Source of the DNA: Christensenella sp. UBA1750
GTDB taxonomy: Bacteria > Bacillota > Clostridia > Christensenellales > UBA1750
Assembly (NCBI GenBank): GCA_002315655.1
Contig: DCHO01000065.1
Location: 3,161 to 67,160, forward strand
Reading direction: 5' to 3'
DNA: 64,000 nt
Shown: one piece after another, positions 36,660 through 60,437 of the stretch
How the letters are laid out: every line of letters begins with the position of its first letter
Numbering within the stretch: the stretch's first letter is position 1
Notes under the pieces: model-generated
What the model saw: only the letters and a program-made list of their open reading frames with translations
Database searches by the model: none
What the model was told of the DNA's origin: nothing
Made by a program: the position numbers and the translations under genes

Positions 36660-37691
36660 CTAAAGGGTTTCCTTCCAACAGGCAACCGCTTTTGCAAAGC
36701 CTTTTAAGTGGCTGTCGTTGTAGTTGTTCTCTCCGTCCACGGTGGGGCAGATGAATGCGCCCTCCTCGAACTCATTCCACGCAAAGGCGAGGATGCGATC
36801 CGGCACCACATTGTCTTTGTTCGCCTTGACCCAATCGGCCAGACGTTTTGCGCCCTCCACGATCTCTTCCTCACTGGCGGGCAGAGCGTAGGGCACATCG
36901 GGATAGGTCGTCCACGGAATCGGGTGATCGACCCTCGGCTGCGGGTTCCAACCCAATGTGAAGTGCGGCAGCACCGGGATGCCGTAGCCCTTGCGGTTTT
37001 CGTTGTACTGCAAATTGCAGTCGATAACCTCGCTGTACCTGGTCGTGTTCAGCGCGCAGCAGGCGTAGGCGCACACCGCGTCCGCCTTGGAATAGTCCTT
37101 GTTCGGGTCAATCTTGCTGCCCCCGCCGCCTTCCAGGAACACGATATACGGCTCCTTTGTGCCGTATTCCTGCGGGAAAGCGCGCATTTTGGCGATAAAG
37201 CCCTCCTGAAAGCCGCCGTAGAGATAGACAAGCGGGCGGCCGTCCACGGTCTCATAATAGCTCTGCTTCATCGCCTCGGCCAGACGCGCCATGTCGCTCT
37301 CCACAAAGGGATGCAGACAGATGAGCAGCGCACAGAGGTGGATTTTGTCCGCATACTTACTGGTTTGGTGCAGATAGCGGGCGTGGTTCAGCTCCCAGAC
37401 GGTGTGATCCACGTTGCCGGGCTTGCCCTTGTCCTTCATGTGATCGTCGGTGTACCAGTCGTAGGCCATGTAGTCAATTCCGGCGGCCATGGCCAGCTCC
37501 AGCTCCCTGTCCACATCGGCCTGCGTCTTCTGCCGGAAAGAGACCTTTTCGCCCTCCACATTGGCATAGAAGGGCGTCACATTCCGAAACTTTTTGTAGC
37601 TTAAAACGGATGTGGAATGAAAGCCGAAGTAAGTGTCCTCCGGCAGGGAATTGTCCCAGTTGATTGCGCCGACGCGCAGTTTGTCATTCAT
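36660..37691 (-). CDS. hypothetical cytoplasmic protein, glycosidase-like TIM-barrel (tentative)
   Basis: 343 aa, no signal peptide. AFAWNEFEEGAFICPT resembles the WNEWxEG motif of GH99-like/WbsX-like proteins. GAAGGAGAG RBS. The family call is weak. Confidence 0.45.
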   Translation of the reverse strand: MNDKLRVGAINWDNSLPEDTYFGFHSTSVLSYKKFRNVTPFYANVEGEKVSFRQKTQADVDRELELAMAAGIDYMAYDWYTDDHMKDKGKPGNVDHTVWELNHARYLHQTSKYADKIHLCALLICLHPFVESDMARLAEAMKQSYYETVDGRPLVYLYGGFQEGFIAKMRAFPQEYGTKEPYIVFLEGGGGSKIDPNKDYSKADAVCAYACCALNTTRYSEVIDCNLQYNENRKGYGIPVLPHFTLGWNPQPRVDHPIPWTTYPDVPYALPASEEEIVEGAKRLADWVKANKDNVVPDRILAFAWNEFEEGAFICPTVDGENNYNDSHLKGFAKAVACWKETL

Positions 37692-37747
37692 GGTGTTCTC
37701 TCCTTCAATCTTTTAAGTTCAAGCTGCCGCTCTCTCGAGCTTATGTT

Positions 37748-39811
37748 TCACTCCGTTTTCAGCAGCAGCGTGTCGCCCTTTTTCATGTTGACGTCCACAA
37801 AGCACTCGTTTCCGGGCAAAGTCTCCCCGGTGAAAACCTCCACCATCCGGCACTTTTTCGGTACGTGAATGCGCTTGCAGCCGTCGGATGCAGCATGAAC
37901 GGCGATATAATCTTCGCTTGCGTACACCACATCCCCGGCGGTGTTGTAGAGCATCCCGGCAGCGCCGTTCAACAGGTCGCGCAGGGTGTTTTCCTCCGGC
38001 ACCATGGAAATGCTCGCGCAAACGGAAAAATTCTCCTCCCGCCGCAGCACGCAGAGAGCACCCATTTCGTCCTTTTTGAGCACAATGTCATGCTCCGTCA
38101 GCGCGATGCGGCGCAGCGGCGTTTCCACCGCGCCCATCTCCTGATTTTCGGGCAGTTTTTCGTTCCACGGCGCCTCATCCAAGACAAACCCGCTTGCCCG
38201 CTCCTGTTCCCCGCAGCCGAGGAACACAAGCGCCCGTCCGTCCTTTTTCCACTTTTCAAGGGCAGATAATCGTTCCGCCGTCCAGTCGCAGGGCGTGCAG
38301 AAGATCGCCATGCGGAAATTTTCCGGGTCAATGTCCGGTAGATCGTCCATCATGAACATTTTGTACGGCGCACCGATTTTGCCCAAGTGCTTCCACACCG
38401 CCTGATTCTGCGTTGCGGAAATCGCGCCGGGCGTAAAGCGGTAGAAGGTGGCATCATCCATAAACAGCGCGGTTTCGGAGGCGTTTGTGACCCCGCCGGA
38501 CAGCATGGTTTCCGCATAGAGCCGATAAGCCTTTTGGTGGAAATCCATGTACCGCTCGTCTTTGTACCAGCCGCCCCACATATCGAACCACCAGATGGCT
38601 GTATTGTGGGTGAGCACCTTTGCAAAGGCCTTTTTCATCTGCCCAAGCGAGCCTTCCACGGTGTCCGGGCCGTACCAGACCGGCCCGTCGTAGGCGCGGT
38701 TGACGTAAGGATCGGCCTTTTTGAAGCTCTCGGAGATCGGGCGGCTCAGATGCGTGCGCACGTCCGCCTCCATGAACCACGGTTTGCCGTGCAAGGCCGC
38801 CGATTCAATCGAGCCCTGAAACTGCCAGTCCACGCCCTGCCCGCGGTTGTCGGTGTAGGCAAAGGGGCTGGCGATAAAGTCCACATTTTCACTGGTAAAG
38901 AGCAGGGAAGCGGCGTGCTGCCCGGTCTCGCTGCTGCAGGCCAGATAGCCGTAAAACGCGCCGATGATCTGCTGATGCTCCGTCACGCGCTTGGCGGCGG
39001 CGCAGAGCGCGTCCGCGGCCTTCGCCATGCCCGCGTTCATAAAGGCATAGTAGTCAATCACGAACTTTTCGCTTTTCTCATCGTGCAGGGAGCCGTGATT
39101 GCCGTAAATGCGCTGCATGGCGGTGGGAAGGGAAATGTCCTCAAAGGAGGCAAACGACTTGCGCCACACCGCATTGGCTTTCTCGATGCTGCCGTACTTT
39201 TCCTTCGCAAACAGGCAGAAATCCTTCCGCGCCGGTTCGGAATAGTCGATCATCTGCTTGGGTCTGTGGTTGGGGCGGATAAATTCCTCCGTGTTTCCCG
39301 CCGCAATGTGCCAGCCGATGACGTAGCGATCCCAGCCGCTTTCCTGCACCCACTTTTGCAGATCGCAAAGCATTTGTTCCACATCCTCTATCCACTTTTT
39401 CGAGTGGAAGGACTGGTGCAGCGGCGTGCCGTGCGCATCCCGGCATACCTCGTTCGGGTTTTCCTCATCCCACCAGGAGGGCGCTTCCACCATCAGCCGC
39501 GGGATGATGTAGATTTCCCCGGGCTTGGAATTGCCCGTTACGGTGCGTAAATCCGCATCCACCTCGGAAAAATCGTACTTGCCGTAGCCCTTCCAGAAAC
39601 CGCTTCTGAACGGGCGAATGCCGCTGTTCTGGTTGATTCCCCGGTCACAGGCGTACATCGTGCAGAAAAACAGCCGCACCCCGATTTTCTTGAAATCCTC
39701 ATAGCAGCCCTTTTCCGGCTGATAGGTCAGATACGCATAAAGCGGCAGCTTTTCGCCGTTCACTTCCAGCAAAAAGGCGTTGCCGTGACGAATGATTCTG
39801 CTCTCCAACAT
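37748..39811 (-). CDS. cytoplasmic clan GH-A-like glycoside hydrolase (GH42/GH35-like, tentative)
   Basis: 687 aa from the ATG at 39811 (GAGGAAG RBS). The N-terminal barrel has WHIAAGNTEEF (an NE-type acid/base candidate), and the overall layout resembles GH42-type beta-galactosidases. The family call is not verified. Confidence 0.5.
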   Translation of the reverse strand: MLESRIIRHGNAFLLEVNGEKLPLYAYLTYQPEKGCYEDFKKIGVRLFFCTMYACDRGINQNSGIRPFRSGFWKGYGKYDFSEVDADLRTVTGNSKPGEIYIIPRLMVEAPSWWDEENPNEVCRDAHGTPLHQSFHSKKWIEDVEQMLCDLQKWVQESGWDRYVIGWHIAAGNTEEFIRPNHRPKQMIDYSEPARKDFCLFAKEKYGSIEKANAVWRKSFASFEDISLPTAMQRIYGNHGSLHDEKSEKFVIDYYAFMNAGMAKAADALCAAAKRVTEHQQIIGAFYGYLACSSETGQHAASLLFTSENVDFIASPFAYTDNRGQGVDWQFQGSIESAALHGKPWFMEADVRTHLSRPISESFKKADPYVNRAYDGPVWYGPDTVEGSLGQMKKAFAKVLTHNTAIWWFDMWGGWYKDERYMDFHQKAYRLYAETMLSGGVTNASETALFMDDATFYRFTPGAISATQNQAVWKHLGKIGAPYKMFMMDDLPDIDPENFRMAIFCTPCDWTAERLSALEKWKKDGRALVFLGCGEQERASGFVLDEAPWNEKLPENQEMGAVETPLRRIALTEHDIVLKKDEMGALCVLRREENFSVCASISMVPEENTLRDLLNGAAGMLYNTAGDVVYASEDYIAVHAASDGCKRIHVPKKCRMVEVFTGETLPGNECFVDVNMKKGDTLLLKTE

Positions 39812-39925
39812 CCATTTCTTCCTCACTTTCAGAAGAATACTAAACGATTTATAGCATAGCATATTTTGAATTAAGGTTCAACGAAATTCCCGCGCATTTT
39901 AGGCGGAAACCGCCTGTCAGATTGC

Positions 39926-43668: not shown

Positions 43669-43697
43669 TTGACGAAACGCCCCTCCCATGCTATACT
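43669..43697 (+). promoter_or_regulatory. sigma-A-type promoter of tRNA-Leu
   Basis: TTGACG (43669-43674), 17 nt, TATACT (43692-43697), 9 nt before the tRNA 5' end. Confidence 0.7.
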
Positions 43698-43706: not shown

Positions 43707-43792
43707 GCCGAAGTGGTGGAATGGCAGACACAAGGGACTTAAAATCCCTCGAGGGAAACTTCATGCGGGTTCGAGCCCCGCCTTCGGCACCA
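43707..43792 (+). tRNA. tRNA-Leu(UAA): tRNA-Leu, anticodon UAA, with encoded CCA
   Basis: Hand-folded cloverleaf: acceptor GCCGAAG/CTTCGGC, anticodon arm AGGGA-CTTAAAA-TCCCT, long variable arm, T-arm GCGGG-TTCGAGC-CCCGC, discriminator A plus CCA. Confidence 0.9.
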
Positions 43793-43931: not shown

Positions 43932-46900
43932 TTACTGCGCCTTGTAAAGCATCAGATTGCATGAGGAAGTCGCGGAGGTTGCGATACCAAATCCGCTGCT
44001 GTAGCGCAGGTAGAGGCTCTTGCGGCTGGCGGTGGCATAAAGGCGCGTGTAGCTGCCGGAGGTCTTGCGTTTCCATGCGGTCTGGGTGGAAGAGACCTTG
44101 AGCGTATATGAGATGGTGAACCAGTTAGAAGAGGTTGAGTAGGTCAGATAAGTGCCCGTGGACTTGTTTTTCAGCACATAGCCGTTGGAGGTGTTCCCCG
44201 TGATGATCCAGACGTAATTGTCCGAAACATTGGAAAGGGCACTGTTGGAGGCCGTGAGCTTGGTTGCGGTGATGCTGCCGTTGCTCACGCCCAGCGCGTA
44301 GCCGGAGGTGTTGGTGAGCACATATTCGCTGCCGGAATCGATGCCGTCCGTGTCCAAGGTAAAGGTGCTGCCATTCTTTTTCAGGGCAGCCTTGGCGTTC
44401 TCAATGGCGGTGACAGCCGCATTCACTTCGGTCTGCATAGCGCGGGCGTTGTCGTAGACGGTCTTTCCGTCCGTCATGGCTTGCTTGTAAGGGACGTAAG
44501 TCACGGCGGTGTAGTCGCTCTCGGCGAGGGTTTCATCCAGCAGCCTTTTCAGTGCTGTTTTGTCGGTGTTAAGAACATAGACGGCGTTTGCCTCATCCGC
44601 GGTGTTCTTTCCGAAGCTGCCCGTAATGGGGTCGGGGGTGTCGTAATTCTCGATGGGGTCAAGGATGACGGTGTAGGTCGTGCCGGTCTCGCCTTCCAGA
44701 AAAATATCCTCGCCTATCGTCTCTCCCGCATCATCTATCAGATGCACGGTGATGCTGCCGTAGGTCAGTTCCGCCAACGCATCTTTGGCATCGTTTATGG
44801 CCTTGACGGCTTGATCGACATCACCCTGCTTGGCCTTTGCGTTGTCATAGACCGCTTTGCCGGAAATAAGCGCGGCAGAATAGGGTGCGAAGCTTGCCGT
44901 TGTGTAGTCTGCGGCGGGCAGGGCTTCGTCCAGCAGGGTTTTCAGCGTGGATTTGTCGGTGTTGAGGACATAAACCAGCGTGAAAGAATCGTCCTTTGCG
45001 AAGGTGCCGGAGACGGCTTCGGGGGTGTCGTAATTGTCGATGGGCGCGGGCGTGAAGGCGTAGACCTCGCCCTTTTTGCCGCTCTGCGTTTCGTCCTCCG
45101 CCAGCTTGTCGCCCCAAGCATCGGTAAAGTGCACCGTCACGGTGTAAACCTTGTCGGTGAGTGCGTCCCTGGCATCGTTCAGCGCGGACAGTGCCTCGTC
45201 CACCTCGGTCTGGGTGGCGCGAGGTTTGTTGTAGACAGTCTTCGCGGCAGCCAGCGCGGCGGCATAGCCTTGGTAAGTTGCGTCGGTGTATTCGCCCTGC
45301 TCGGTGATGGCGGCATCCAGCGCGTTTTTCAGGGCATTTTTGTCGGTGTTTAAGTTATAAATGAGGGTGATCGTCCCGGTTACGTCCCCGGTGAATGTGC
45401 CGGACACGGGCTGCGGGGCAACATAGCCGTAAAGCGCCGGCGCATCCACGGTGTAGAGCGTGCCCTCCGCGCCGGAGATGGTGTAGGAATCCTTCAGGGT
45501 CTTTCCAACATCATCCACGGTGTAAACGGTGATAACCTGATGGGGGCTCTTAACCTTCACGGTGTAGAGGGTATCGCCGATGCCCACCTTGGTCTCTCCG
45601 CCTGACAGACCGGAAATGGTTATGGTAGTATAGGCTTTTCCTTCCACCCCGGGTGTGCCTTCGGCCACGGTGTAGGCCGCAGCGTACTTGGTGGAGGAGG
45701 TGGAGAGCTTAAAGCCGCTGCTGTAACAGAGGTAATAGGTGCTTGTGCGGCTCGAGAAGAAGCTCTTGGTGGAGGAGGAATAGTAGAAACCCTTGGAGGA
45801 CGAATAGCTCCATGTCGCGTTGGAAGTCGAGGTGGAGAGCCCTAAGCTGTTGTTGTTATGGCGCAGGTAGTAGCTGCCGGATTTTAAGTAAATGCTGCTG
45901 CCGGAGCCGGAGACCGACCAGACGGTCGCCTTGCTTGCATCGTTTGTGTAAGAGAGCGAAGACCCGCTGGCAGTGAGGAAATATTTGCTGCTACCGCTGA
46001 CATAGCCAATTAAGCAGGTGCTCCCCAGTGTTGTCTGCTTGGTGAGGCCGCCCTCCACGGCGGGTACAGCGGCAACCGTGGTGCCCTGAACGGTGACGGA
46101 GGCAATGGCTTCATCCAAGCGATCCTTTGTGTAAGCGGCTTCGTAATCGCCCGTTTCGTCCACAAAGGTGGTGCTTTCCCCGATGTCCAATTCGATGGTC
46201 TGTTGCTTTGCGTAGGCCTTGTAGACCGTCAGGGCAATGGGATAGGTCTTGCCAAGGTAGGAAACCGTAACGGTGGTTTCACCGGGCTTTTTAAGGGTGA
46301 TGCTGACAGTTCCGTTGTTTATGGAAGCCGCCGCAACCGATAAATTGCCCACGGAAACGGCAGGTGTGCCCTTGCTGCCCGCAAAACGTGCGGTCAGGGT
46401 CGTGCCTTCGTCGCCGGATAAGTTCAGCGCATCCAGCAGTTCTTCGCCGCCGTCAGGATCGACAAAGCCCGCTTTCTCCGGCTCGTCCGGCGCATCGGGG
46501 ATTTCCCCGCCGTTTACGGAGACGGAAGATATAGCGGTTTCCAGGCCGGAGGCGGTGGCGGTCAGCGTGATCGCCTCATCGCCTTCCCCTGCCTGCACAA
46601 TGACCAGCGCACGCCCTGCGTAGGCCGGGAGGCTTGCGGCGGTGTCGGAGGTGAGGACGGAAGGCTGCTGTCCCTTTTTCGTGGTGGCCTGATCGCCGTT
46701 GTCCACGGCAAGGATTTTTCCGCTGCCGGAAAGTGTGATGTTGATTGTCGGCTCTGCGGTGGTGTCAAAGATACCGTTTACATCGGTTATTTCCACATCA
46801 AAGTAGACAAGCTCGCCCGTATTTGCGGCACCCTTTTCAGCCGTGAGCCTGATCTTTGCCGCCGCGCCGGGAGTGGACACGGAAGTCTCGCCCGCGCAGG

Positions 46901-49900
46901 AATCGGTGATCTCTTTGCCGCTTTCGTCATAGGCCTTAGCCGAGATTATGCCGGAAGCATAGGTCACATTAAAGGTTGCATAGAGCGCGGTGGAGCCGCT
47001 GCCGGACACCGCTGTGCAGACGGAGGTGTTGTCGGAAGCGGTGGTGTAGGTTATGTAGGTATGCCCGGCGGCGGTCGTGTGCCTAGTGCCCGTGGCGGTA
47101 CCGATGAGGCTGCCGTTGCGGTACAGTTCGACCTTCGCGGCGTTGGAATAGATGACAACGGGCGTTTTGCCGTTTGTTGTGTACTGGTTGTCCGCATCCC
47201 AGGCGGTGACAAGGTGCAGGGTATTTTCCTTGGTGTTCCACTGGCTGCGGTAGAAGTAGAAGGTGTCCTTCACAAAGCCCGTGGTGTCCGCAATGCCGAA
47301 ATAGCTGCTGTTGGGCATCGCGCCGGAGCCGGTGACGGAGCCGCTGCCCGTGCCGTTGTAGGGCGTGGGTTCGCCTAAGTAGTCAAAGCCCGTCCAGACA
47401 AATTCGCCGGAAATATAGTCCTTGGTCAGCGTGTCATAAAGGGAAGCGTGGGCGGTCTTGCCCCAGCTCACGGCGGAGGTGTCGTAGGAGGTCAGGTGAT
47501 ATTCCCCATCCACCCCAGCGTTGTTGCTCTGGGACACATACACGTCACGGGAATTGGTGGCGGATGTGGTTTCGGAGGAAACCAGCGCGCCCCAATAGCT
47601 GTTCAGAGAGGAAAGCTGGGAAGAAGAAGCGTAGTTGAAGCCCACCACGCCGCCCGCGCTCTGCACAGCAGAGAGCACCTGCCCCATAACGGAGGTTTTG
47701 TCCGTGACGCGGGTGTTGTCTCCGATGGTGACAGGGCGTGAGGTGTCCTGCGCCTGCACATACGCAATCAGATTCTTCGCAATCGTCGGATAAGCGGAGC
47801 AGGAGGTCGAAGTTCCCTCGGTGATCTCGTTGCCTAACGACCACAGAATCACGCAGGGCGCATTGCGGTCACGCCGCACCATGGAGGTAATGGCGTACTG
47901 CGCGTATGTTTCGCCGCTCTCGGCACCCACAAGGCCGTTGTCGGCAGAGATCGTGGCGTTAAAGTATTTGGAGAAATCGTTGCTGTTGCCGTTCTTGGGC
48001 TGGCTCCACCCGTCAAAGGCTTCCTCAATGACCATGAGCCCCAATTCATTGCACAGAGCAATCAGGTTTTCGTCTGCGGGGTTGTGGGTGGTGCGGATGG
48101 CGTTGACGCCCATGTCCTTCATGAGACGCAACTGCCGCTCAATGGCATCGGAATACGCCGCAGCGCCCAGACCGCCCTGGTCGTGGTGGAGGCACACACC
48201 GTTGAGCTTCACGGTTTCGCCGTTTAAGGAGAAGCCCTTTGTGCCGTCAAACTCCGTCCAGCGGAATCCGAAATCGTCCGTGACCGCATCGACTTCCTTG
48301 CCGTCCACGGTCACAACGTTCTGCACGGTGTAAAGGTTCGGGTCATCCGTCGACCACAGAGCCGGGGAAGAAACCACCGCGCTTATGTCGGCAGAAACAG
48401 TGCTTCCCGCTTTGACGGTCACGCTCTTACTGCCGGAGGCAACGGGAACAGAGCTGTTCTTTCTGTAAATGTTAGCCGTGACGGTGACGGTTTTGTCCGC
48501 TGCGCTGTCATTGACGATCTCTGCGGAAACCTGCACCGTGCCCTTACCGGAAGCAATGTCCGGCGTGGTAACGGCGGTGCCATTCAGCGCAATATGCACA
48601 GGGTTTGCGGAAATGAGCGTCACATCGCGGTAAATGCCGCTGCCGGAATACCATCTGCTGGAAGGGATGTTGTTCACGGCCTTCACAGCGATCACATTAC
48701 TGCCGCTCTTTACATACTCGGTCAGATCGACGGCAAAGGCGGAATAGCCGTAGTGGTGCTCGCCCACATACTGCCCGTTGCAGTAAACATAAGCATCGGA
48801 ATACACGCCGTCAAAGTTCAGCAGGAAGGTTTTGCCGATTTCGCTTTCCTCCACGGAAAAACTCTTGCGGTACCAGCCCGTGCCGCCGGGCAGGAAGCCG
48901 GATTCCGCCTCGCCGGAGGTCGTGTAGCTCTGGGAAATAGAAAAGTCATGCGGCAGGGTCACGGAATCCCATGCGGAATCATCGAAGGAAGCAGCATAGG
49001 CATCGGACACATCACCTAAATGGAACTTCCAGCCGTCATCAAAGTTCACTTCCTCGCGGCTGCCGGAAAGTGCCTTCTCCCCCACCGCCGCGCCGGGCGC
49101 AATGGCGGAAATTAAGTATGTCGCAAAGTTCATCTTGCACAGGCAGTCATCCCCGCTGCCCCAGCCGTTTGTGTAATCCTCATACAGAATGGCAATGCTG
49201 CCGTCCTTGTTTTCCGTCAGCGCGGAGTAGCCGAACCGGTTCGCGGAATGGACGGACGGCACGCTCATGGAATAGGCAAAGTTCATGCTGCCGTCTTCAT
49301 CGACCAGACCGACAAAAATCTTACCGTTGACACGCGCCGTGCCGGCGGAGGAATTGCTGCCGGAAGCTTCGGAACCCGCAGGGCAGGAAATGAGGATTGC
49401 CTGCTTGCCGTCCAAGGTTTTGGAATAGGAAAGCGCGGATAACTGAGTGTTGGAGTTCACGGAGACGTTCGTGACAACGGGCGTGCTCCAAGCATAGCCG
49501 GAGGCGGAAGCCTTTGCATCGGCATAGCAGATTTTGCAGTTGTTGTTGCGGAAGAAGAAGCGCAGCGTGCCGTCGGCAAGCTCCACGCATTCGCTCTCGG
49601 AGCCCCAGTTGTAGGAAAGACTTTCGCTGCGCTGCCAGGTCGCGCCGGAATCCTTGGAGTAAATGAAGCTGACGCGCTGGCTTTCGTTGGAGCCGTTGTA
49701 AGAATACACGGGAAAAACAACGGTACCGTCAGCGGTCACAACGGAGTTGCCCGGGGCAACCAGACAGGCCATCTCGGAGGAGGTTTTGAGGTTTAATAGA
49801 GTCGGGGCAGACCACGATTTACCGCCGTCTGTGGACTTTGTAAGATACAGATAGCCTGTGCGCACGACCTTATAGGGCGAATCGGCGCAGAACAGGTTCG

Positions 49901-51593
49901 TGTCGCAATTTGTGCCCTTGATATTGAAGTGCTCATCCACCGTGTAGCCGGAAACAACCGTGCCGGAGCTATTACGGATGGTATAATCGGACAGATCGAG
50001 ATAATAGGAATAGGAGGTGCTGCTGCCGGCAGCGAGCTTCAGATTGCCGTTTCCGTCAAAGGCTAAGGATGTGGAGGGCGCGGTATTGCCGCTGCCGTTT
50101 AATGCCACACCGTAGGGGTAAAGGTCGCACAGCAAATAAACGGTGTCATTGCCGTCCACTGCCATGGCTGGGTCAATGAAAGCCGTGGAGGACGAACCGT
50201 TATACACATTTCCGTTGTCGCCCAAGTAATTGGCGAAAGCATACGTCCAGTTTTCTCCGCCGTCCTTGGAAACGCTCACCAGCGTGTCCAGTCCGCCGCC
50301 GTCATAAACGGTGTTCCAGCGGGCATCCGCCGCCGCGACCAGCGTTCCGTCGGATAAGGTCACAAGGGAGGGAATGCGGAAGGAGTTGCTGCCCGCCGTG
50401 CCCTGCGGGAAGGGATTGCCCTGCGTGGTCTTGGGCGTTTCCTGCCCCTTGCTCTCGGGCAGCGCGGAACCGAAGGCAGCAATCACGGCGGCGGTGTTCT
50501 TCACCACGTTTGTGTCGGTGTCCGCCTGGGGATAATCGCACCAGATGCAGAAGCACGCGCCGTAGGGGTCGGAAATGGTCGAACCCTGGAAGGAATTGAC
50601 ATTGAAGCCGGAGGCCTTCGTGGCGGTGCACTGCCAGTCGCTCTTGCCCAGCACCCAATAGTAGTCGCCGTGGGTGTTGACAACCTCAAAGCCGTAGGTG
50701 TTGTGCAGGGTGGAAGCGGACATAGGCGTGTAGCCCGACCAGCCGGAGGACCAGTAGAGAATCACAATATCGTTGTCAAAAGTGCCATAGGAGGTGGTGT
50801 TGTTGAAATAAATGCCGTCATTGAAGGCCATGGGGGTCATGCCCGCGTCCTTGATGATGGAAGCCAGACCGTTGACATAGGAGACGAAGGAGCCGTATTT
50901 GCGGCTGCTGATGAGGTTGCCGAAGCCCATGGAGCCGGAGGTGTATTTGTCGTTGGCGTACTCGTCCGAGCCCATGTTAAAGTAAGTGCAGCCTTTTTTC
51001 GCAAAATACTCCGCATACTTCTTAACCAGCGTCTGCGTAAAGGCCACGGCCGTGGAATTGGTCACATCCACCGTGCGGGCGGAACCGGCATACGCCACGT
51101 TGGAAAGGCCGCAGTATTCCATGCAGTCCACAATGGCGTCCATGTGCCCAGGGGTGTTGATGAGCGGGATGATGGAAATGCTCTTGGATTTGGCATAGGC
51201 CAGAATCTCATCCATTTCACTCTCGGTCAGCTCATCTACGGTAAAGTTGCTGTACGCTTCGTTGCCGCTATGCAGCCCTGCGGAAACCTGCGCGCTTGTG
51301 TAGGTCGTGCCGCCGACAGTCAGCGACAGATCATCCAGCAGGAAGCGCAGCCCGTCGTTGCCGATGCCCAGCTGCACATGGGTAAACCCGGCAGAGGCGG
51401 CATTGTCGATGATGCTCTTTAAGGAACTAACGGAGAAATACTTTCTGCCGCAGTCCACAAAAACGATCTTGATGAACGTGTCGTTGCCCGTGCTCCCGGA
51501 AGCCGCCACGGGCACCACACCGAGACCGAAAACGGTCGTCAGCGCCATCATGACCGCCAACATCCACGAAAGCACTCTCTTTCTCAGCTTCAT
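43932..51593 (-). CDS. secreted multi-catalytic glycosidase: GH20 (StrH-like beta-N-acetylhexosaminidase) + GH33 sialidase + GH2 (BgaA-like beta-galactosidase) + Ig-like/MucBP/FIVAR modules
   Basis: Signal peptide from the ATG at 51593 (GGAGGAG RBS). GH20: VDCGRKYFS, GNDGLRFLLDD, INTPGHMDA, FNMGSDEYAND. GH33: FRIPSLV plus Asp-boxes SKDGGENW, STDGGKSW, SKDSGATW. GH2: NAIRTTHNP, WSLGNE, EFVWTGFDYLGEP, DTFYFYRSQW. One uninterrupted 7.7-kb frame. Confidence 0.85.
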   Translation of the reverse strand: MKLRKRVLSWMLAVMMALTTVFGLGVVPVAASGSTGNDTFIKIVFVDCGRKYFSVSSLKSIIDNAASAGFTHVQLGIGNDGLRFLLDDLSLTVGGTTYTSAQVSAGLHSGNEAYSNFTVDELTESEMDEILAYAKSKSISIIPLINTPGHMDAIVDCMEYCGLSNVAYAGSARTVDVTNSTAVAFTQTLVKKYAEYFAKKGCTYFNMGSDEYANDKYTSGSMGFGNLISSRKYGSFVSYVNGLASIIKDAGMTPMAFNDGIYFNNTTSYGTFDNDIVILYWSSGWSGYTPMSASTLHNTYGFEVVNTHGDYYWVLGKSDWQCTATKASGFNVNSFQGSTISDPYGACFCIWCDYPQADTDTNVVKNTAAVIAAFGSALPESKGQETPKTTQGNPFPQGTAGSNSFRIPSLVTLSDGTLVAAADARWNTVYDGGGLDTLVSVSKDGGENWTYAFANYLGDNGNVYNGSSSTAFIDPAMAVDGNDTVYLLCDLYPYGVALNGSGNTAPSTSLAFDGNGNLKLAAGSSTSYSYYLDLSDYTIRNSSGTVVSGYTVDEHFNIKGTNCDTNLFCADSPYKVVRTGYLYLTKSTDGGKSWSAPTLLNLKTSSEMACLVAPGNSVVTADGTVVFPVYSYNGSNESQRVSFIYSKDSGATWQRSESLSYNWGSESECVELADGTLRFFFRNNNCKICYADAKASASGYAWSTPVVTNVSVNSNTQLSALSYSKTLDGKQAILISCPAGSEASGSNSSAGTARVNGKIFVGLVDEDGSMNFAYSMSVPSVHSANRFGYSALTENKDGSIAILYEDYTNGWGSGDDCLCKMNFATYLISAIAPGAAVGEKALSGSREEVNFDDGWKFHLGDVSDAYAASFDDSAWDSVTLPHDFSISQSYTTSGEAESGFLPGGTGWYRKSFSVEESEIGKTFLLNFDGVYSDAYVYCNGQYVGEHHYGYSAFAVDLTEYVKSGSNVIAVKAVNNIPSSRWYSGSGIYRDVTLISANPVHIALNGTAVTTPDIASGKGTVQVSAEIVNDSAADKTVTVTANIYRKNSSVPVASGSKSVTVKAGSTVSADISAVVSSPALWSTDDPNLYTVQNVVTVDGKEVDAVTDDFGFRWTEFDGTKGFSLNGETVKLNGVCLHHDQGGLGAAAYSDAIERQLRLMKDMGVNAIRTTHNPADENLIALCNELGLMVIEEAFDGWSQPKNGNSNDFSKYFNATISADNGLVGAESGETYAQYAITSMVRRDRNAPCVILWSLGNEITEGTSTSCSAYPTIAKNLIAYVQAQDTSRPVTIGDNTRVTDKTSVMGQVLSAVQSAGGVVGFNYASSSQLSSLNSYWGALVSSETTSATNSRDVYVSQSNNAGVDGEYHLTSYDTSAVSWGKTAHASLYDTLTKDYISGEFVWTGFDYLGEPTPYNGTGSGSVTGSGAMPNSSYFGIADTTGFVKDTFYFYRSQWNTKENTLHLVTAWDADNQYTTNGKTPVVIYSNAAKVELYRNGSLIGTATGTRHTTAAGHTYITYTTASDNTSVCTAVSGSGSTALYATFNVTYASGIISAKAYDESGKEITDSCAGETSVSTPGAAAKIRLTAEKGAANTGELVYFDVEITDVNGIFDTTAEPTINITLSGSGKILAVDNGDQATTKKGQQPSVLTSDTAASLPAYAGRALVIVQAGEGDEAITLTATASGLETAISSVSVNGGEIPDAPDEPEKAGFVDPDGGEELLDALNLSGDEGTTLTARFAGSKGTPAVSVGNLSVAAASINNGTVSITLKKPGETTVTVSYLGKTYPIALTVYKAYAKQQTIELDIGESTTFVDETGDYEAAYTKDRLDEAIASVTVQGTTVAAVPAVEGGLTKQTTLGSTCLIGYVSGSSKYFLTASGSSLSYTNDASKATVWSVSGSGSSIYLKSGSYYLRHNNNSLGLSTSTSNATWSYSSSKGFYYSSSTKSFFSSRTSTYYLCYSSGFKLSTSSTKYAAAYTVAEGTPGVEGKAYTTITISGLSGGETKVGIGDTLYTVKVKSPHQVITVYTVDDVGKTLKDSYTISGAEGTLYTVDAPALYGYVAPQPVSGTFTGDVTGTITLIYNLNTDKNALKNALDAAITEQGEYTDATYQGYAAALAAAKTVYNKPRATQTEVDEALSALNDARDALTDKVYTVTVHFTDAWGDKLAEDETQSGKKGEVYAFTPAPIDNYDTPEAVSGTFAKDDSFTLVYVLNTDKSTLKTLLDEALPAADYTTASFAPYSAALISGKAVYDNAKAKQGDVDQAVKAINDAKDALAELTYGSITVHLIDDAGETIGEDIFLEGETGTTYTVILDPIENYDTPDPITGSFGKNTADEANAVYVLNTDKTALKRLLDETLAESDYTAVTYVPYKQAMTDGKTVYDNARAMQTEVNAAVTAIENAKAALKKNGSTFTLDTDGIDSGSEYVLTNTSGYALGVSNGSITATKLTASNSALSNVSDNYVWIITGNTSNGYVLKNKSTGTYLTYSTSSNWFTISYTLKVSSTQTAWKRKTSGSYTRLYATASRKSLYLRYSSGFGIATSATSSCNLMLYKAQ
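44372..45539 (-). repeat. three tandem coding repeats of about 129 codons (MucBP-like beta domain plus FIVAR-like helical module) inside the giant gene
   Basis: Protein repeats (V/I)TV(Y/H)..D..G...........G..YT......NYDTP....G.F......YVLNTDK(N/S/T)(A/T)LK. At DNA level, 25-nt segments at 44633-44657 and 45020-45044 differ at one base and are 387 nt apart. Confidence 0.75.
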
Positions 51594-51728
51594 ATTCCGC
51601 TCCTCCATCCTCACAAAACGGACTATTTGCCCGTATATACTCTAACAATTATAGTATAACCCATTTGAAACAGAATGGAAACATCGCTGACCTAATTTTC
51701 GGGAAAATCTCCGCATTTTGCTGCCATA

Positions 51729-53351
51729 TCAGGCATTCTTTTCTCCAAGCAGATCGTGATAGTGCTTCCATCTTCCATAGATTTCATCGTACTGTTTCCC
51801 GTGTGCCGCGTCAGGCTCCACGGTCATGCACCCGGCAGAAGCCATGTTTTCGATGGCTTCTCCCATCTCCATTCCTCCGGCCATAGCACCCAAAATCGCC
51901 GAGCTGACCGCCGTGAGCAGCGTCTCCTCGGAGACCTCCACAGGTCTGCCCAGGACGGACGCAATCTGCCGCACCAAGAAGCCGTTTTTCAGCGGAATGC
52001 CGCCGCAGAGCACGATTTTGTCAAAAGGCAGTCCGTTTGCCGCAAAATGCTCCAAAATGATGCGGATGCTGCACGCAATCGACTGCACAAAGGCACAATA
52101 AAGGTCGGCGGTAGTGGTGGAAAGCCCCATGCCGAGTACGTTTCCGCGCAGCGCCATATTGTTAAGGACACAGCGGTTCCCGTTCCACCAGTCCAGTACC
52201 GTCACGGAATTGCTCCACGACTCTTTATCTGCCTGTTCCGACAGATATTCGTGAAGCCCTTTCCCCTTCGCTTCCGCCTGTGCGGAAATCTCGGAGGGCA
52301 CCATGGCTTTGCAGAACCAGTCCAGCATATCCCCCGCGCAGGGCGTTCCCGCGTCATACGACCACCTCCCCGGCACCATGCCGCCGAAGGTCACACCGTT
52401 GATGCCGCCGATGGTCATTTTTTCGTCAGAGGTGAAGGACATCGCCATAGAGGTGCCCACGGTGATGGCAATGGTTTTCGGCTCCTTTGCGCAGAAGTAA
52501 AGCCCCGGCGTGCTGCCGTCGCCCATGGGCACAGCCACGGGGATTCCCGCTTTCAGCCCCAAACGCTCTGCCGCAGCTTTCTTGAGAACTCCGCAGGGCG
52601 CGGAATAATCCGAGATTTCCCCCGCGAATTTCGCAAAGAAGGCCGCCGCAAAGCCGTCCGCCAGCGCGTCTAATTCATCCTTCTCCGGCCAGCCGGTCTT
52701 TTCGCTCCACAAGCCCTTGAACCCGGCGGAATACAGGCTGTGCACCTGCTTCCCGGTCAGCAGCAGCGCCAGCCATTCGCCCAGGTCGCAGAACCGCTCC
52801 GTCGCGTCAAAGACTGCCCTGTCCTCCTCATAGGTTTCCAGCAGCTTGGGCAGGGCATATTCGCAGTTGCAGGTTCCGGCATAGTTTTCAAGCACGGCAA
52901 ATTTGCCCTCGTTTTCGTATAGTGCCTGAATCCTGTCGGCCTGTCCCGCCGCCGCATGGTGCTTCCACAGCTTGATATAGGCCATGGGATGCTTTTCAAA
53001 CCCGGGAAGCTCGCTCACCACCGTGCCGTCCGATAGGCACGGCACCATAGTGTAGGCCGTAGCGTCAATGCCGATCCCGATGATTTCGTCAGGGCTTACG
53101 CCGGACTTCTCCAGCGCGCCCCGGATGCTTTTGACCAGCGCGTCCTTATAGTCCTGCGGCTCGGCCAGCGCCGCATCCGCGGGCAGCGGCGTTCCGTCCG
53201 GGAGATTCCCGGTAACGACCCCATGCGGGAAAATCGCAACGCTCTCCCCCATCACCTGCCCGCTTGCGCAGGACACCACCACCGCTCGGGCGGACAGCGT
53301 GCCGTAATCTATTCCAATGGCATATCCGTTCTTTTTCAGCATTTCCTTCAT
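51729..53351 (-). CDS. FGGY-family carbohydrate kinase (ribulokinase-like)
   Basis: N-terminal YAIGIDYGTLSARAV actin-fold phosphate-1 motif, GIGIDATAYT, and a length and pattern resembling AraB. GAGGGTGG RBS. Confidence 0.75.
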   Translation of the reverse strand: MKEMLKKNGYAIGIDYGTLSARAVVVSCASGQVMGESVAIFPHGVVTGNLPDGTPLPADAALAEPQDYKDALVKSIRGALEKSGVSPDEIIGIGIDATAYTMVPCLSDGTVVSELPGFEKHPMAYIKLWKHHAAAGQADRIQALYENEGKFAVLENYAGTCNCEYALPKLLETYEEDRAVFDATERFCDLGEWLALLLTGKQVHSLYSAGFKGLWSEKTGWPEKDELDALADGFAAAFFAKFAGEISDYSAPCGVLKKAAAERLGLKAGIPVAVPMGDGSTPGLYFCAKEPKTIAITVGTSMAMSFTSDEKMTIGGINGVTFGGMVPGRWSYDAGTPCAGDMLDWFCKAMVPSEISAQAEAKGKGLHEYLSEQADKESWSNSVTVLDWWNGNRCVLNNMALRGNVLGMGLSTTTADLYCAFVQSIACSIRIILEHFAANGLPFDKIVLCGGIPLKNGFLVRQIASVLGRPVEVSEETLLTAVSSAILGAMAGGMEMGEAIENMASAGCMTVEPDAAHGKQYDEIYGRWKHYHDLLGEKNA

Positions 53352-54364: not shown

Positions 54365-55774
54365 CTATTTCACGGAATCCATCAGCTCGCCGATGGTGAT
54401 GTCGGGATGCTCCATCCCCATTCGGATCAGTCGGACGGTCTCCTCATGCAGCCTTCCGATTTCCTCCTCCGTAAAGTTGAAGGGGCGGTATTCATAGAAG
54501 AAATCCATGCCGCCGTCCGTGAAGCTGGGCACAATGAGGGCGTATAGGTTGCTGGCGAAATGGCCGGTGGTCATGCCGTCAAATTCAATGTTCATTCCTT
54601 CAATGGTGAAGGTCGAATCCAGCGGAACGCAGGAAAGAACCATGGAAACATCCGCTTCGGTCATAAGATGCTTTTGATTTTTTGATTCGATCTTAAAACT
54701 ATCCATGATAGAGAAATCCGAATGGCGCATGACGGCGAGCTGCTCCTGTGTGACTGTCTTCAGAGCCTCCGTAAAGGTAGCATCCTCCTTGACGATGGTA
54801 CGCAGATGCTGTGCCTGAATGCGCAGTCCGCCGCAGTGAAGGTCATCCACGCGCACCCGGCGGTTGTTGACCATGGCGAAGGTCACGTTCTCCGAGCGCT
54901 CATTGATCGCGGAAAGATAGCTGCGCATTCCCAGAATGATGAGGCTCTGCAGCGGCGCATGATACTCCCGCGCAAAGTCGTCCACTCTGCGAATCTCGTC
55001 ACCGTCCATGTGGCAGCGCAGGGTCAGGCTTTTGTCGTGCAACAGGTCAACATAAATTGCGAAACGGTAATTCGGATCCCGCCTCCTTTTGCGCGTCTTG
55101 TTCAGCATCCGCATCCCGTCAACTCCCGCACAGAAAGAAGGATTGTCCGGTGGATAGACGGAATTGAAGAACGCCGCATCCGCATCATGCCGCTTTTGGT
55201 CATGCTTCCGTTCCAGATCGCGTATCAGGCTGTCCTCAAACCGGGTCAGCGGCGCGGGCATTTCCGTTCCGTTTTCCAGCGCCAGATACACGCTTAAGAG
55301 ATCCCTGTAGAAGATAAACACGGCAGCAATGTCCATGTTCATGTGGGAAACGTTGAAATACAACCCGCTCCGACCGTCCCAGGTCGTAAAGAGGATTGTG
55401 CGAAAGACTTGACCCTTCAGATAGCGGATCGTCTTCTTTGCATCCTCAAGCAGGTAGGCCACCATATCCTCCCGGGTCTTTCCCGAAAAATCGGCAAATC
55501 CGATTTCCGGCTCCGGCAAAGAGGGCAGGAAGTAAGAGCGGGTGCCTTTCAGGGTTCTTACAAAGTGTTCCCGAAGGCAGTCGTTGCGTTCCTGCTCGAT
55601 GATCAACGCCTTTTTGAAAATCTGCGGATCCAGCCTGTGGTCGGTGATGATATAGGTCGGAATTTGCGCCACATTCTTGTGAAGACAGAAATTCAACTGA
55701 AAGGCGTTTAGCTCCTGGCTGGCGGAAAGCTCGTACAGTTCAAGTCCCTTATACTCTTTTTTTCTCACGTTCAT
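54365..55774 (-). CDS. stand-alone NRPS-type condensation (C) domain protein
   Basis: 469 aa from the ATG at 55774. Active-site-like motif SHMNMDIAAV (HxxxD of HHxxxDG). N-terminal YELSASQE is like the C1 motif. No A or T domain in the same ORF. Confidence 0.7.
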   Translation of the reverse strand: MNVRKKEYKGLELYELSASQELNAFQLNFCLHKNVAQIPTYIITDHRLDPQIFKKALIIEQERNDCLREHFVRTLKGTRSYFLPSLPEPEIGFADFSGKTREDMVAYLLEDAKKTIRYLKGQVFRTILFTTWDGRSGLYFNVSHMNMDIAAVFIFYRDLLSVYLALENGTEMPAPLTRFEDSLIRDLERKHDQKRHDADAAFFNSVYPPDNPSFCAGVDGMRMLNKTRKRRRDPNYRFAIYVDLLHDKSLTLRCHMDGDEIRRVDDFAREYHAPLQSLIILGMRSYLSAINERSENVTFAMVNNRRVRVDDLHCGGLRIQAQHLRTIVKEDATFTEALKTVTQEQLAVMRHSDFSIMDSFKIESKNQKHLMTEADVSMVLSCVPLDSTFTIEGMNIEFDGMTTGHFASNLYALIVPSFTDGGMDFFYEYRPFNFTEEEIGRLHEETVRLIRMGMEHPDITIGELMDSVK

Positions 55775-55838
55775 ATTCCTATCCCGGTTGTTTCCAATGA
55801 CATAACCGTTTTCGAGGAAACACAGATAGTCTCCTTCA

Positions 55839-55867
55839 ATACTATTTCTCTTAATGCTGATGGTCAA
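55839..55867 (-). promoter_or_regulatory. candidate own promoter of the condensation-domain gene
   Basis: Minus strand reads TTGACC (55867-55862), 17 nt, TAGTAT (55844-55839). Confidence 0.5.
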
Positions 55868-55914
55868 GAAAAAGAGAGCAAATTGCATTTTCAGAGCACT
55901 TTACTCTCTTTTTC
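55868..55914 (-). terminator. possible terminator after the FtsX-type permease gene
   Basis: Arms GAAAAAGAGAG (55868-55878) / CTCTCTTTTTC (55904-55914), with a 25-nt loop. Confidence 0.4.
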
Positions 55915-55939
55915 AATCAACCTTATACGGTCTGCAATC

Positions 55940-58900
55940 TTACTCGATTGCTTTTAAGGATTCCACCATACTGATTGCCTTCATCCGCTTGGTCATGAAC
56001 AGGTTCACAAGGACGGTGAAGCCCATGGTGATGCAGGCGGAATAGAGGTAGCTGACAAATTTGATGTCGTGGGAGAAGGTAACCATACTGACCTCGACGG
56101 TCTGGATGATGAACTGCGCCATGAGATAACCCAGGAAGGAGCCCACCAGCACGCCCAGCACGGACATGATGATGTTCTCTCTGAAAATATACATATTGAC
56201 TTCCTTATGATTGAAGCCAAGCACCTTGACGGTAGCAATCTCACGCACACGCTCGGAAATGTTGATGTTGGTGAGATTATAAACCACGATAAAGGCCAGA
56301 ACTCCGGCGCAGAGAATCATGACAAACACGACGATGGAAAGCGAGGCCATCGTATCCTTGACCGCATTGCTCGCCATATCCGTGAAGTATGCGCTGACGA
56401 TGCGGCTATCCTTTGCCAGCCATTCCTCAGAGAAGGCATCGTGGCTGCCCATGTCATCAGTGCAACACAGGATCACCTGGGAATAGCCGTTCTTCTCCCC
56501 GGTCACTTTCTCATAATAGTCGGGAGAAATATACACATAGTTATAAATGTAGCATTCGGCGATCCCCGTTACCTTCATGGTGTACGTTTTGTCGTTGAAG
56601 GTCGTGCAGATCTCGTCCCCGATTCCGACTCCGAGCTTTTTGGAGAGCTTATTGGTGATTACCGCGCCATCGTCCGTCAGGGCAACAGGTGTCTTGGTAT
56701 CCGGGTCGCGCAGATTTATGATCTCGGCGATGCTGTCTTTGTTTTCGGGAACGAATACAAAGGTGTCCTCCATCTGGACTTTGCCTTCCGGATCCGAAGC
56801 CTTGCAGTCATAGGTGACAACGCAGATCTGGCTCTCAACCCGCGGATCTTCCTCAAGCTGGGTGATCAGATCATCCAACTTCTCTTTTTCGCTGGTCTGG
56901 TTCAGGTAGAAGGTAACGTCCTCACGGCTCAACTCACCATACTGAATATCGGAAATGGGCGAAATCGCATTGTTCAGACCGAAGCCCGCAACCACCAACG
57001 CCATGCAGCCGGCAATGCCCAGCACCGTCATGAACAGGCGGAGCTTGTAGCGGAGCAGGTTTCTGGCCGTCAGCTTCTGGAAGAAGGAGAAATGCTTCCA
57101 CAGCCAGGGCAGCTTTTCCAGGAATATCTTTTTACCCGCCTTGGGAGCCTTGGGGCGCATCAGCGCCGCAGTGGTGGTGCGCAGCTCCTTCCAACAGACG
57201 ACCGCCGCAACCGCAACCGTGCAGATGAGTGCCACGACAACGGAGACCAGCAGCATTCCGATGGGAACCTTGATGATGAAATAAGGCAGACTATACAGAA
57301 TACTGTACGCCCCGAAGATGACGCGGGGCAGAATCTGCGACAGTGCCACGGGGCCGACAATGCAGCCGCCCACGCAGGCCAGCGCCGCATACACCAGATA
57401 CTTGGACGCCGTTTCAAACTGGGTGTAGCCCAGCGCCTTGTAGGTGCCCATCTGGGTGCGTTGCTCGTCAATCATGCGGGTCATGGTGGTTAAGCAGACC
57501 AGTGCCGCGACCATCAGGAAGAACACGGGGAACACGTCGCCGATGGCGTCGATTCGCATGGCGTCCTGCCGGAAGTTCGCATAGTTCACCATGATGTCCT
57601 CGCGGGAGAGCACATACCACTTGCCCGCCACCACGTCGGAAATCATGCTTTTCGCATTCTGAATGCGATTGAAGCCGCTGGACAGCTCCTTTTCCACTTC
57701 GGCCATGGAATCGGTGTATTCCGCCATGCCTTCTTCATATTCATCCTGCGCATCGTCCAACTGTTCTTCGGAATCCACAAGCTGCCGGTGCGCATCATCC
57801 AGTTCTTTCTGTGCCTCAGCCTTCTTCTTTTTCAGCGTTCTCTGACCGCTTTTCAGGCTGGCTTTGGCATTTTCCAGCTCTCGCTTGCCGTCCTCGATTT
57901 CCTGGGCAGCCGCGGCAAGCTGTCGCTCCGCCTCTACCTTTCCGGCTTCATATTCTCTTTCCCCGGCTTCCAGCTCGATTCTTGCGCTGTTCAGCTCGGA
58001 TTCTGCCGATTCGAGCTGGGCTTTGTATTCATTGTACTCTGCCATCTGCGCATCGGCTTCGTCCATCTGCGCCTTGGCTTCGTCCAATTCTCTCTGCGCG
58101 TCGTCCAATGCCGCCTGCGCTTCATCGTAGGCTTCCAGCATCTCCTCTTTGCTCACTTCACTGCCGACCGACAGGTTGGCAAGCTCCTCTTCCTGCCGTG
58201 CAATGGACTCCTCGAGATCCGCAATTTTCTGCTCCATCTCGATGTATTCCGGTGTTCCGGGCTCCATCGTGCTTAGCTGCTCCTGATAGTTCTGCAACTG
58301 GGCCTTTGAAGCTTCCAGTGCAGCCTGAAGGATTGCAAGATCCGTCGCGCTGATGGTGTGGCTTTCCTCCTGATCTATCTGCGCCTTGATCTGATCCAGC
58401 GTAGCCTGTGCCATGGACACTGCCCGCTGTGCCTGCTCATATTCCTCTTTGGCCTGTTCGTATTCTTCGATGGCATCCTGATACTCGGCGGTGGCGGCGG
58501 AGAATTCTCTTTCCGCCTTCTCATACTCGGATTTGCCTGCATTGTATTCCGCCCAGCCGCTGTCCAGCTGCGCACGCGCATCCTTCAGCTTGGCCTCGGT
58601 TTCCTTCTTTTTCTGCTCATATTCGGCAATACCGGCAGCCAGCTCCTTCTTGCCGCTCTGGATGGAGGCCTCCGCGTGTCTTAACTGTCTCTCCGCGTCC
58701 GCGATCTGTTTGTCCGCTTCCTCGGAGCCGGCCTCATAATCCTTCCAGCCCTGCTCCAATGCCAGCAGGCCGTCGTCGATCTGCTTTCTCGCATCCTCCA
58801 GCTGGGTGCGCGCTTCACTCAGCTCTTTGTCTGCCTTTTCCTTGCCCTCGTTGTATTCCTCTTCCGCATCCGCGATCTGCGCGTTTGTTTCATCGGCAAA

Positions 58901-59671: not shown

Positions 59672-59690
59672 AGCGCGCCTCTCTTATCTC

Positions 59691-60395: not shown

Positions 60396-60437
60396 GCTCT
60401 GTCCCTCATTTCATTTCCGTTGTCCGGCTTTCTCCGC

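Follow-up and report, generated by a model that had tools for sequence, protein, structure and literature searches.

A fusion of predicted GH20, GH33 and GH2 exoglycosidase domains in a single polypeptide of Christensenella sp. UBA1750

Contig DCHO01000065.1 of Christensenella sp. UBA1750 carries, within the 64,000-nucleotide (nt) stretch analyzed here (the window), a gene for a protein of 2553 amino acids (aa). Its sequence holds three intact catalytic domains of glycoside hydrolase (GH) families 20, 33 and 2 within one translated polypeptide, which marks it as a predicted multi-catalytic fusion. We consider it probable that this is a genuine secreted exo-glycosidase with three activities, which would remove in succession the terminal sialic acid, galactose and N-acetylglucosamine (GlcNAc) of host glycans. 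Secretion, each of the three activities, their linkage specificities, the sequence in which they act and what is gained by fusing the domains are points that we infer from the sequence and from characterized relatives. Multi-catalytic surface glycosidases are already known, and the GH20-GH33-GH2 form is a rare one.

Three catalytic domains in one reading frame

The open reading frame (ORF) extends over 43932..51614 on the reverse strand (-), where it is a single frame of 2560 aa when counted from a GTG codon, and its translation contains no internal stops. This agrees with the uninterrupted frame spanning 43932-51593 that had been described in an initial annotation of this DNA. Residue numbers are counted here from the ATG at 51593 (the initial annotation counted from 51614, which adds 7). 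The domain order is GH20 (residues 35-385), GH33 (395-835) and GH2 (845-1700). Behind these come an Ig-like domain that encloses a beta-trefoil, three units of MucBP+FIVAR and, at the C-terminus, another beta-trefoil. A second protein with the same catalytic order, P0002 (1757 aa), is 65% identical to the window protein and colinear with it through both junctions. The coding sequence, the catalytic domains and the junctions are as follows.

43932..51593 (-): complete gene of 2553 codons and a stop; its product is the same as database protein P0295
50439..51491 (-): GH20 catalytic domain of the StrH/EndoE type, residues 35-385, from Pfam and PDB matches; D210-E211 at nt 50961-50966
50412..50438 (-): GH20-GH33 junction, with a flexible part of about 15 residues, LPESKGQETPKTTQG; colinear in P0002, which has 6 residues fewer here
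49089..50411 (-): GH33 six-bladed sialidase with an inserted domain, residues 395-835, from BNR_3/BNR_2 and PDB matches
49062..49088 (-): GH33-GH2 junction, AIAPGAAVGEKALSGS; colinear in P0002
46494..49061 (-): five-domain GH2 beta-galactosidase region, residues 845-1700, from Pfam, NCBIfam and PDB matches

Profile hidden Markov models support all three catalytic domains, the Pfam calls given here being above the gathering cut-off: Glyco_hydro_20 (PF00728) at residues 45-318 (65.2 bits, cut-off 22.3), BNR_3 (57 bits) and BNR_2 (66 bits) at residues 407-801, and Glyco_hydro_2_N (96 bits), Glyco_hydro_2 (66 bits) and Glyco_hydro_2_C (96 bits) at residues 851-1418. DUF4982 and Glyco_hydro2_C5 also pass the cut-off, giving a five-domain GH2 set that spans residues 851-1687, and FIVAR and MucBP are each found three times. 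All motifs quoted in the initial annotation (GNDGLRFLLDD, INTPGHMDA, FNMGSDEYAND, PMAFNDGIYFN, WSLGNE, FVWTGFDYLGEP and DTFYFYRSQW) were located in the translation, and key catalytic residues are present in GH20, GH33 and GH2 alike.

The GH20 domain finds its best solved match in the GH20 domain of Enterococcus faecalis EndoE (PDB 7pul, 4e-85, residues 35-361). Both GH20 domains of StrH (GH20A and GH20B) match it at 1e-77 to 1e-70, in line with the StrH-like motifs noted initially, and the remaining solved GH20 enzymes, lacto-N-biosidases included, match at 1e-14 or worse. The catalytic pair D210-E211 (FNMGSDEYAND) is matched in 7pul by the DE of FNFGGDEYAND and is unchanged in P0002; its counterpart D661/E662 is the Asp-Glu pair with which EndoE carries out substrate-assisted catalysis (PMC8894350). 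EndoE-GH20 and StrH are exo-beta1,2-GlcNAcases acting on the antennae of complex N-glycans (PMC8894350; PMC4161441). From approximately 50-55% identity to these characterized enzymes, the window GH20 would by analogy be an exo-beta1,2-GlcNAcase on complex N-glycans as well.

The GH2 region aligns end to end with PDB 6qub/5dmy/7nit (5e-226, approximately 57% identity), and also with BgaA (PDB 4cu6, 9e-147); with the five-domain Pfam set, the latter match substantiates the GH2 domain with BgaA-like motifs that had been read from the sequence. BgaA is specific for Gal-beta1,4-GlcNAc and uses E564 as acid/base and E645 as nucleophile (PMC4161441). By alignment, the acid/base of the window enzyme is E1256 in WSLGNE (nt 47826-47828). 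The putative nucleophile is E1341 in SSETTSA (nt 47571-47573), which lines up with GSETASA in 6qub and is unchanged in P0002. The two residues lie 85 positions apart, versus 81 in BgaA, and no other Glu occurs within ten residues of the BgaA spacing. Among NCBIfam models, GalB-like matches at 5.5e-172, and GalB/GalA reach 573.7 and 548.6 bits against a cut-off of 900, which points to a relative of GalB/GalA that is not an equivalog.

For the GH33 domain, the sialidase assignment, the FRIP motif (at residue 405) and the three Asp-boxes (at 442, 587 and 646) given earlier all stand, whereas the likeness to NanA does not. The solved structures that match best are NanC (8.5e-45), Ruminococcus gnavus RgNanH (6e-39), leech NanL (1e-37) and NanB (1e-35), with NanA at 5e-24. 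A CBM40, one of the carbohydrate-binding modules (CBMs), was not found, as there is no PF02973 match in Pfam and just approximately 15 residues separate GH20 from FRIP. The catalytic residues, checked at the codon level, are the Arg triad R406, R682 and R754, the acid/base D423, and E666 with the nucleophile Y789; they align with R257/R575/R637/D282/E559/Y677 of RgNanH, whose catalytic residues have been named (PMC4510645). Across 127 homologous GH33 domains the columns of R406, R682, R754, D423 and E666 are invariant, and that of Y789 is Tyr in all except one (126/127).

With NanC, RgNanH and NanB as top PDB matches, membership in the intramolecular trans-sialidases (IT-sialidases) had to be considered. 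NanC releases Neu5Ac2en from N-acetylneuraminic acid (Neu5Ac) termini, and RgNanH, NanL and NanB release 2,7-anhydro-Neu5Ac. The marks of an IT-sialidase are a Thr under the glycerol group (RgNanH Thr557) and a Trp-Tyr stack at the rim (RgNanH Trp698/Tyr607) (PMC4510645; PMC4747158). Two of these three residues are missing from the window GH33. The position of the Thr is occupied by Gly664 (in the 127 homologues: Ser 102, Ala 17, Gly 2, Thr 2), and that of the stacking Tyr by Ser714 (Ser in 120/127); the rim Trp is kept (W811). Membership was rejected on the missing Thr and stacking Tyr, and since these are replaced by Gly and Ser, the domain is most likely hydrolytic. The window GH33 shares the inserted domain and the rim Trp with NanC, NanB, RgNanH and NanL, but differs from them in having Gly at the Thr position (Ser in NanC), Ser at the stacking Tyr and no CBM40. 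A large clade of gut Clostridia sialidases close to NanB/NanC/RgNanH was seen to carry Ser or Ala at the Thr position and Ser at that of the stacking Tyr; within this clade, Gly at the Thr position occurs in the fusion proteins.

Proposed action on host glycans

We propose that the protein is exported via the Sec pathway without covalent anchoring, and that two beta-trefoils and three MucBP+FIVAR units probably retain it on host mucus and glycoproteins or on the cell surface. GH33 would take off terminal sialic acid, most likely by hydrolysis, after which GH2 (BgaA/BbgIII-like) would take off the exposed beta1,4-galactose of N-acetyllactosamine (LacNAc). Lastly, GH20 (StrH/EndoE-like) would remove the exposed beta-GlcNAc, by analogy the GlcNAc-beta1,2-Man of complex N-glycan antennae. 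The order along the chain, GH20-GH33-GH2, differs from this reaction order of GH33, GH2 and GH20, and the benefit of the fusion would lie in proximity, co-secretion at a fixed 1:1:1 stoichiometry and shared targeting modules rather than in an assembly line. Sequential trimming fits the domain relationships, since the nearest characterized relatives of GH20 and GH2 act on successive sugars of Neu5Ac-Gal-beta1,4-GlcNAc-beta1,2-Man. Among the host glycans that end in sialyl-LacNAc, the antennae of complex N-glycans are most probably the substrate.

The three domains might instead be active on another substrate, for example mucin O-glycans or poly-LacNAc, milk oligosaccharides or non-host sialoglycans, with GH20 acting on beta1,3- or beta1,6-linked GlcNAc, and we regard this as possible though not likely. 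The MucBP domains suggest an association with mucus, the specificity is carried over from relatives that are just approximately 50% identical, and the window GH2 is closest to PDB 6qub/5dmy/7nit, presumably of the BbgIII type. Furthermore, Bifidobacterium bifidum uses BbgIII together with BbhI on type-2 chains of human milk oligosaccharides and mucin (PMC7232152). Nevertheless, the window GH20 is far nearer to EndoE-GH20 and StrH (1e-85 to 1e-70), which are beta1,2-specific on N-glycans, than to lacto-N-biosidases and other GH20 enzymes, which argues for the N-glycan antennae.

It is decidedly unlikely, in our view, that the protein has three modules but is not tri-catalytic as proposed, in that at least one domain is lectin-like or inactive, or that the sialidase makes 2,7-anhydro-Neu5Ac or Neu5Ac2en. 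Such products are suggested by the nearest PDB relatives of GH33, namely NanC on the one hand (Neu5Ac2en) and RgNanH, NanL and NanB on the other (2,7-anhydro-Neu5Ac), by the retained W811 and by a clade that holds no characterized member. Against this, none of the three domains has lost a catalytic residue, P0002 conserves them all, and Gly and Ser stand in for the defining Thr of IT-sialidases and the stacking Tyr, respectively. NanC itself, which has Ser at the Thr position, also relies on a specific Phe-396 loop. A hydrolytic GH33 within a three-activity enzyme is the reading that we retain.

Several observations weigh against this proposal as a whole. GH33 belongs to a branch related to NanB, NanC and RgNanH whose characterized members release no free Neu5Ac, and in its own clade, where none of the members has been characterized, the key column is Ser, Ala or Gly. 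All specificities are taken over from relatives that are 37-57% identical. The nucleophile of GH2 is assigned by motif, spacing and invariance rather than by alignment to BgaA, and for PDB 6qub/5dmy/7nit, which presumably are B. bifidum BbgIII-type enzymes, we found no paper to confirm the identity. Both examples of the GH20-GH33-GH2 order stem from one metagenome sample, and no nan, galactose or GlcNAc utilization genes adjoin the fusion gene in the window.

Both inter-domain linkers are approximately 15 residues long. Whether such short linkers, between which and the catalytic domains no other modules lie, lock the three active sites into a compact unit that hands an antenna from site to site, without release of the glycoprotein, seems doubtful. 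If they do, the protein would be a single-molecule antenna-stripping machine, and the repeated fusion of these activities would reflect selection for physical coupling of an exoglycosidase cascade. There is a slight chance that the protein is a precursor and, once secreted, is cleaved into individual enzymes, in which case fusion would matter for co-expression alone. Large clostridial surface enzymes are often processed, and the protein has no anchor; on the other hand, the linkers of approximately 15 residues contain no recognizable protease site.

The chance that a metagenome assembler joined three glycosidase genes of related community members in frame is negligible, even with a metagenome source, many paralogous giant GH20 and GH33 genes of 60-70% identity in related bacteria, and both known examples coming from one sample. 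P0295, encoded on an 83.6-kb contig found in several sources, has exactly the sequence of the window protein, and the 2553-aa ORF recurs in P0001, from a separately assembled 33.9-kb JGI contig, with a difference at only two adjacent residues. P0002 is a complete gene on another contig of the same sample with unrelated neighbors, and has the same domain order and both junctions, the linkers of which are partly conserved. In addition, the frame is kept over 7.6 kb, GC content and GC content at third codon positions (GC3) are uniform along the gene and equal to those of neighboring genes, and a DNA repeat scan of the gene found no repeats at the domain junctions. On these grounds a chimeric assembly was rejected, and the mis-join envisaged in the initial annotation has become very unlikely. 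P0001 and P0002 are reciprocal best matches in GH20, GH33 and GH2 (69%, 65.5% and 63.5%), which fits a single ancestral fusion that was kept intact through approximately 35% divergence.

The two residues that distinguish the window version from the JGI version are IN versus LS at residues 1758-1759 (nt 46317-46322, -), within the Ig-like part of the protein, and may reflect a difference either between strains or in the local assembly.

Relation to other multi-enzyme glycosidases

Among 5.8 billion proteins, the GH20-GH33-GH2 order was found in P0001 and P0002 only. Residues 1-1200 were also used in an exhaustive HMMER search of 1.84 billion representatives, which, combined with local domain mapping, gave no further example; the cluster of the window protein itself is absent from that representative library, so this search is incomplete for very close relatives. 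A scan of a genome collection did not find the order elsewhere, and a junction-specific metagenome scan yielded no further example either, its three longest matches (L111, L121 and L092) being GH20-only. Full-text literature searches found no characterized protein that combines the three activities, as the initial annotation had supposed. The implied uniqueness of the idea did not hold, however: judged from sequence, differently ordered and convergent three-activity fusions are encoded by sequenced isolates of Streptococcus and Helcococcus.

In Streptococcus pneumoniae, the corresponding families GH33, GH2 and GH20 are those of NanA, BgaA and StrH, and the window protein is proposed, by analogy, to act in the pneumococcal order on Neu5Ac-Gal-beta1,4-GlcNAc-beta1,2-Man. 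In contrast to these enzymes, it is one polypeptide with linkers of approximately 15 residues, and its sialidase is only distantly NanA-like (5e-24) and lacks a CBM40. It also has one GH20 domain instead of the two that make StrH a multi-enzyme protein in its own right, and lacks both the CBM71 of BgaA and a sortase anchor.

Streptococcus hongkongensis encodes P0123, a 3173-aa "discoidin domain-containing protein" that, like the window protein, has GH2, GH20 and GH33 in one polypeptide. It is present in isolate genome assemblies, and a member of its cluster is labeled S. uberis (WP_037625655.1). Its order is GH2, two F5/8-C domains, GH20, CBM40 and GH33, with the catalytic domains hundreds of residues apart; the GH33 is of the NanA type (PDB 2w20, 1e-182), the C-terminus is a sortase-type LPEAG, and identity to the window protein is 37% in the matched stretches. 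The different order, NanA-type GH33, sortase-type end and low identity argue for an independent fusion. Similarly, P0247 of Helcococcus kunzii (WP_222178422.1, 3352 aa) shares with the window protein the presence of GH2, a beta-N-acetylglucosaminidase, GH33 and FIVAR in one polypeptide, but its beta-N-acetylglucosaminidase is a GH84, the order is GH2-GH84-GH33, and it has BgaA-like CBMs and choline-binding repeats. Both P0123 and P0247 are annotated in generic terms only, and literature searches found no characterization of either.

Partial combinations are also encountered. GH2 and GH20 are paired in S. caprae, S. pacificus/zalophi and Dolosigranulum pigrum, and, at the level of contig matches, GH33 and GH2 lie together on one stretch in Paenibacillus sp. 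LHD-38 (L044) and Helcococcus bovis (L070).

Cooperation of fused glycosidase domains has been demonstrated experimentally for EndoE (PMC8894350) and SiaBb3. In EndoE of E. faecalis, whose GH20 is the best solved match of the window GH20, fused GH18 and GH20 domains cooperate on complex N-glycans; unlike in the window protein, the partner is an endo-acting GH18, the linkers are helical bundles, and there is neither a sialidase nor a galactosidase. SiaBb3 of B. bifidum (GH33+GH123), characterized in 2025, is a sialidase-hexosaminidase fusion for which a two-step removal starting with Neu5Ac was shown, but it has two catalytic domains, targets the Sda antigen and GM2, and uses a different hexosaminidase family.

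Relatives of the window domains come from gut members of the Clostridia, namely Lachnospiraceae, Oscillospiraceae and Butyricicoccus. The large surface glycosidases of such bacteria that carry a single enzyme have an Ig/beta-trefoil scaffold in common, and recombination among them probably gave rise to the fusion. The independent fusions in Streptococcus and Helcococcus can be taken to argue that coupling these activities is advantageous. Three unrelated fusions would suggest that host-associated Bacillota have repeatedly come under one selective pressure, which has seemingly not been described. If its domains are active, one protein would carry out the whole outer-arm trimming of sialylated complex glycans for which pneumococcus and B. 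bifidum use three separate surface enzymes. It would offer a natural test of whether coupling sequential exoglycosidases speeds up or alters glycan foraging, and possibly a single-enzyme reagent with which therapeutic glycoproteins could be trimmed to a defined core.

Accessory modules, expression signals and genomic surroundings

Outside the catalytic domains, the gene and the region upstream of its start contain the following features.

51653..51681 (-): weak sigma-70-like promoter match, TTTCCA-17-TATACT, 9/12
51601..51606 (-): Shine-Dalgarno sequence GGAGGA, read from the sequence, with a 7-nt spacer to the ATG at 51593
51498..51593 (-): predicted Sec-type signal peptide, residues 1-32 (MKLRKR, hydrophobic core, VAAS), from the sequence pattern
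46227..46493 (-): acidic linker and probable Ig-like domain, residues 1701-1789, from the sequence pattern, without a Pfam match
45519..46226 (-): Ig-like domain, residues 1790-2025, in which a beta-trefoil is nested at approximately 1849-1983 (nt 45645-46049)
44370..45518 (-): three tandem MucBP+FIVAR units of approximately 130 aa each, from Pfam; direct repeats D1 and D3
43935..44369 (-): ricin-B-like beta-trefoil at the C-terminus, residues 2409-2553 (145 residues), without an anchor motif

The end coordinate 51593 of the initial annotation coincides with the ATG start, but the first Met that it placed at 51614 is a GTG codon. The ATG at 51593, giving 2553 aa, is the likely start, as it is favored by the GGAGGA 7 nt before it. 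The weak promoter match at 51653..51681 suggests that the fusion gene has a promoter of its own. A signal peptide had been proposed, and the sequence pattern of residues 1-32 supports one; its hydrophobic stretch (residues 7-27) is the sole long hydrophobic run that a motif scan detected in the protein, and inspection of the predicted signal peptide found no lipobox Cys.

The absence of LPXTG or another C-terminal anchor, as originally noted, was upheld. A motif scan found neither LPXTG nor a C-terminal hydrophobic segment, the nearest match being LPAAD at residue 2225, which no hydrophobic tail follows, and Pfam found no SLH, choline-binding or LysM domains in the window protein. SLH domains are present in GH20 relatives among the matches of the 5.8-billion-protein search, and also in a few sialidase relatives.

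Of the accessory regions listed initially, the Ig-like and MucBP/FIVAR modules were recovered, whereas the modules described as unknown are, according to AlphaFold2 and Foldseek, predicted lectin-like beta-trefoils. The model of residues 1790-2025 has a pLDDT of 90.9, and the top Foldseek matches of its nested module are beta-trefoils (HA17, the SeviL lectin and IL-1beta), with weak E values of 0.015-0.05 and target TM scores of 0.5-0.6. The C-terminal module is a second, diverged copy of this trefoil: BLASTP aligns it with the nested one at 27% identity (E 4e-6). Its AlphaFold2 model (pLDDT 82, pTM 0.81) matches ricin-B-like lectins, among them 4ion (2.8e-4) and 4g9m (TM 0.67-0.72), over a TM range of 0.57-0.72, and a sequence search among the 5.8 billion proteins gave no homologues of it. 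Neither trefoil has a ricin/CBM13 match in Pfam, and in place of QxW repeats they contain only degenerate xW motifs.

The unit of Ig-like domain and nested trefoil is rich in Ser, Thr and Tyr and has no Pfam match. It was also seen directly after the catalytic domain in approximately 30 related giant Clostridia sialidases and GH20 proteins, at about residues 500-940 of P0005-P0014, P0045, P0113, P0097, P0035 and others. Based on the structural model, the nested trefoil is a candidate for a new carbohydrate-binding module family. The MucBP+FIVAR units account for the only internal DNA repeats of the gene, spaced by 393 and 387 nt.

Directly upstream, the FGGY kinase gene reported initially (51729-53351, -) is indeed present and was identified as a ribulokinase (NF003154, 450 bits against a cut-off of 428); such an enzyme would belong to pentose metabolism, without an evident link to the use of sialoglycans. 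Downstream lies a gene for a DinB-type polymerase. With these two neighbors and no nan cluster, a functional link between the fusion gene and its surroundings was rejected.

A tRNA-Leu gene (anticodon TAA, 43707-43792, +), the sole Rfam match, lies on the opposite strand 140 nt past the stop codon of the fusion gene. A good promoter-like site is found near it (43669-43697, 10/12 with TG), and no terminator-like hairpin was found between the tRNA gene and the fusion gene.

Elsewhere in the window (33611-36599, -, with 36660-39862, -), a glycyl-radical enzyme (713 aa) and its activase represent a sparsely sampled branch. The nearest relatives of the glycyl-radical enzyme are 74-77% identical, after which identity drops to 58%, and its NCBIfam scores are far below all equivalog cut-offs; beside the two are a 343-aa protein without assignment and a weakly GH42-like protein of 704 aa. 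Further upstream of the fusion gene, the region 54365-62492 (-) encodes a stand-alone condensation-domain protein of the nonribosomal peptide synthetase type (507 aa), an AMP-binding enzyme (580 aa), and a 1243-aa MacB/FtsX-type permease with its ABC (ATP-binding cassette) ATPase; these genes may form an export cluster related to acyl compounds or lipopeptides.

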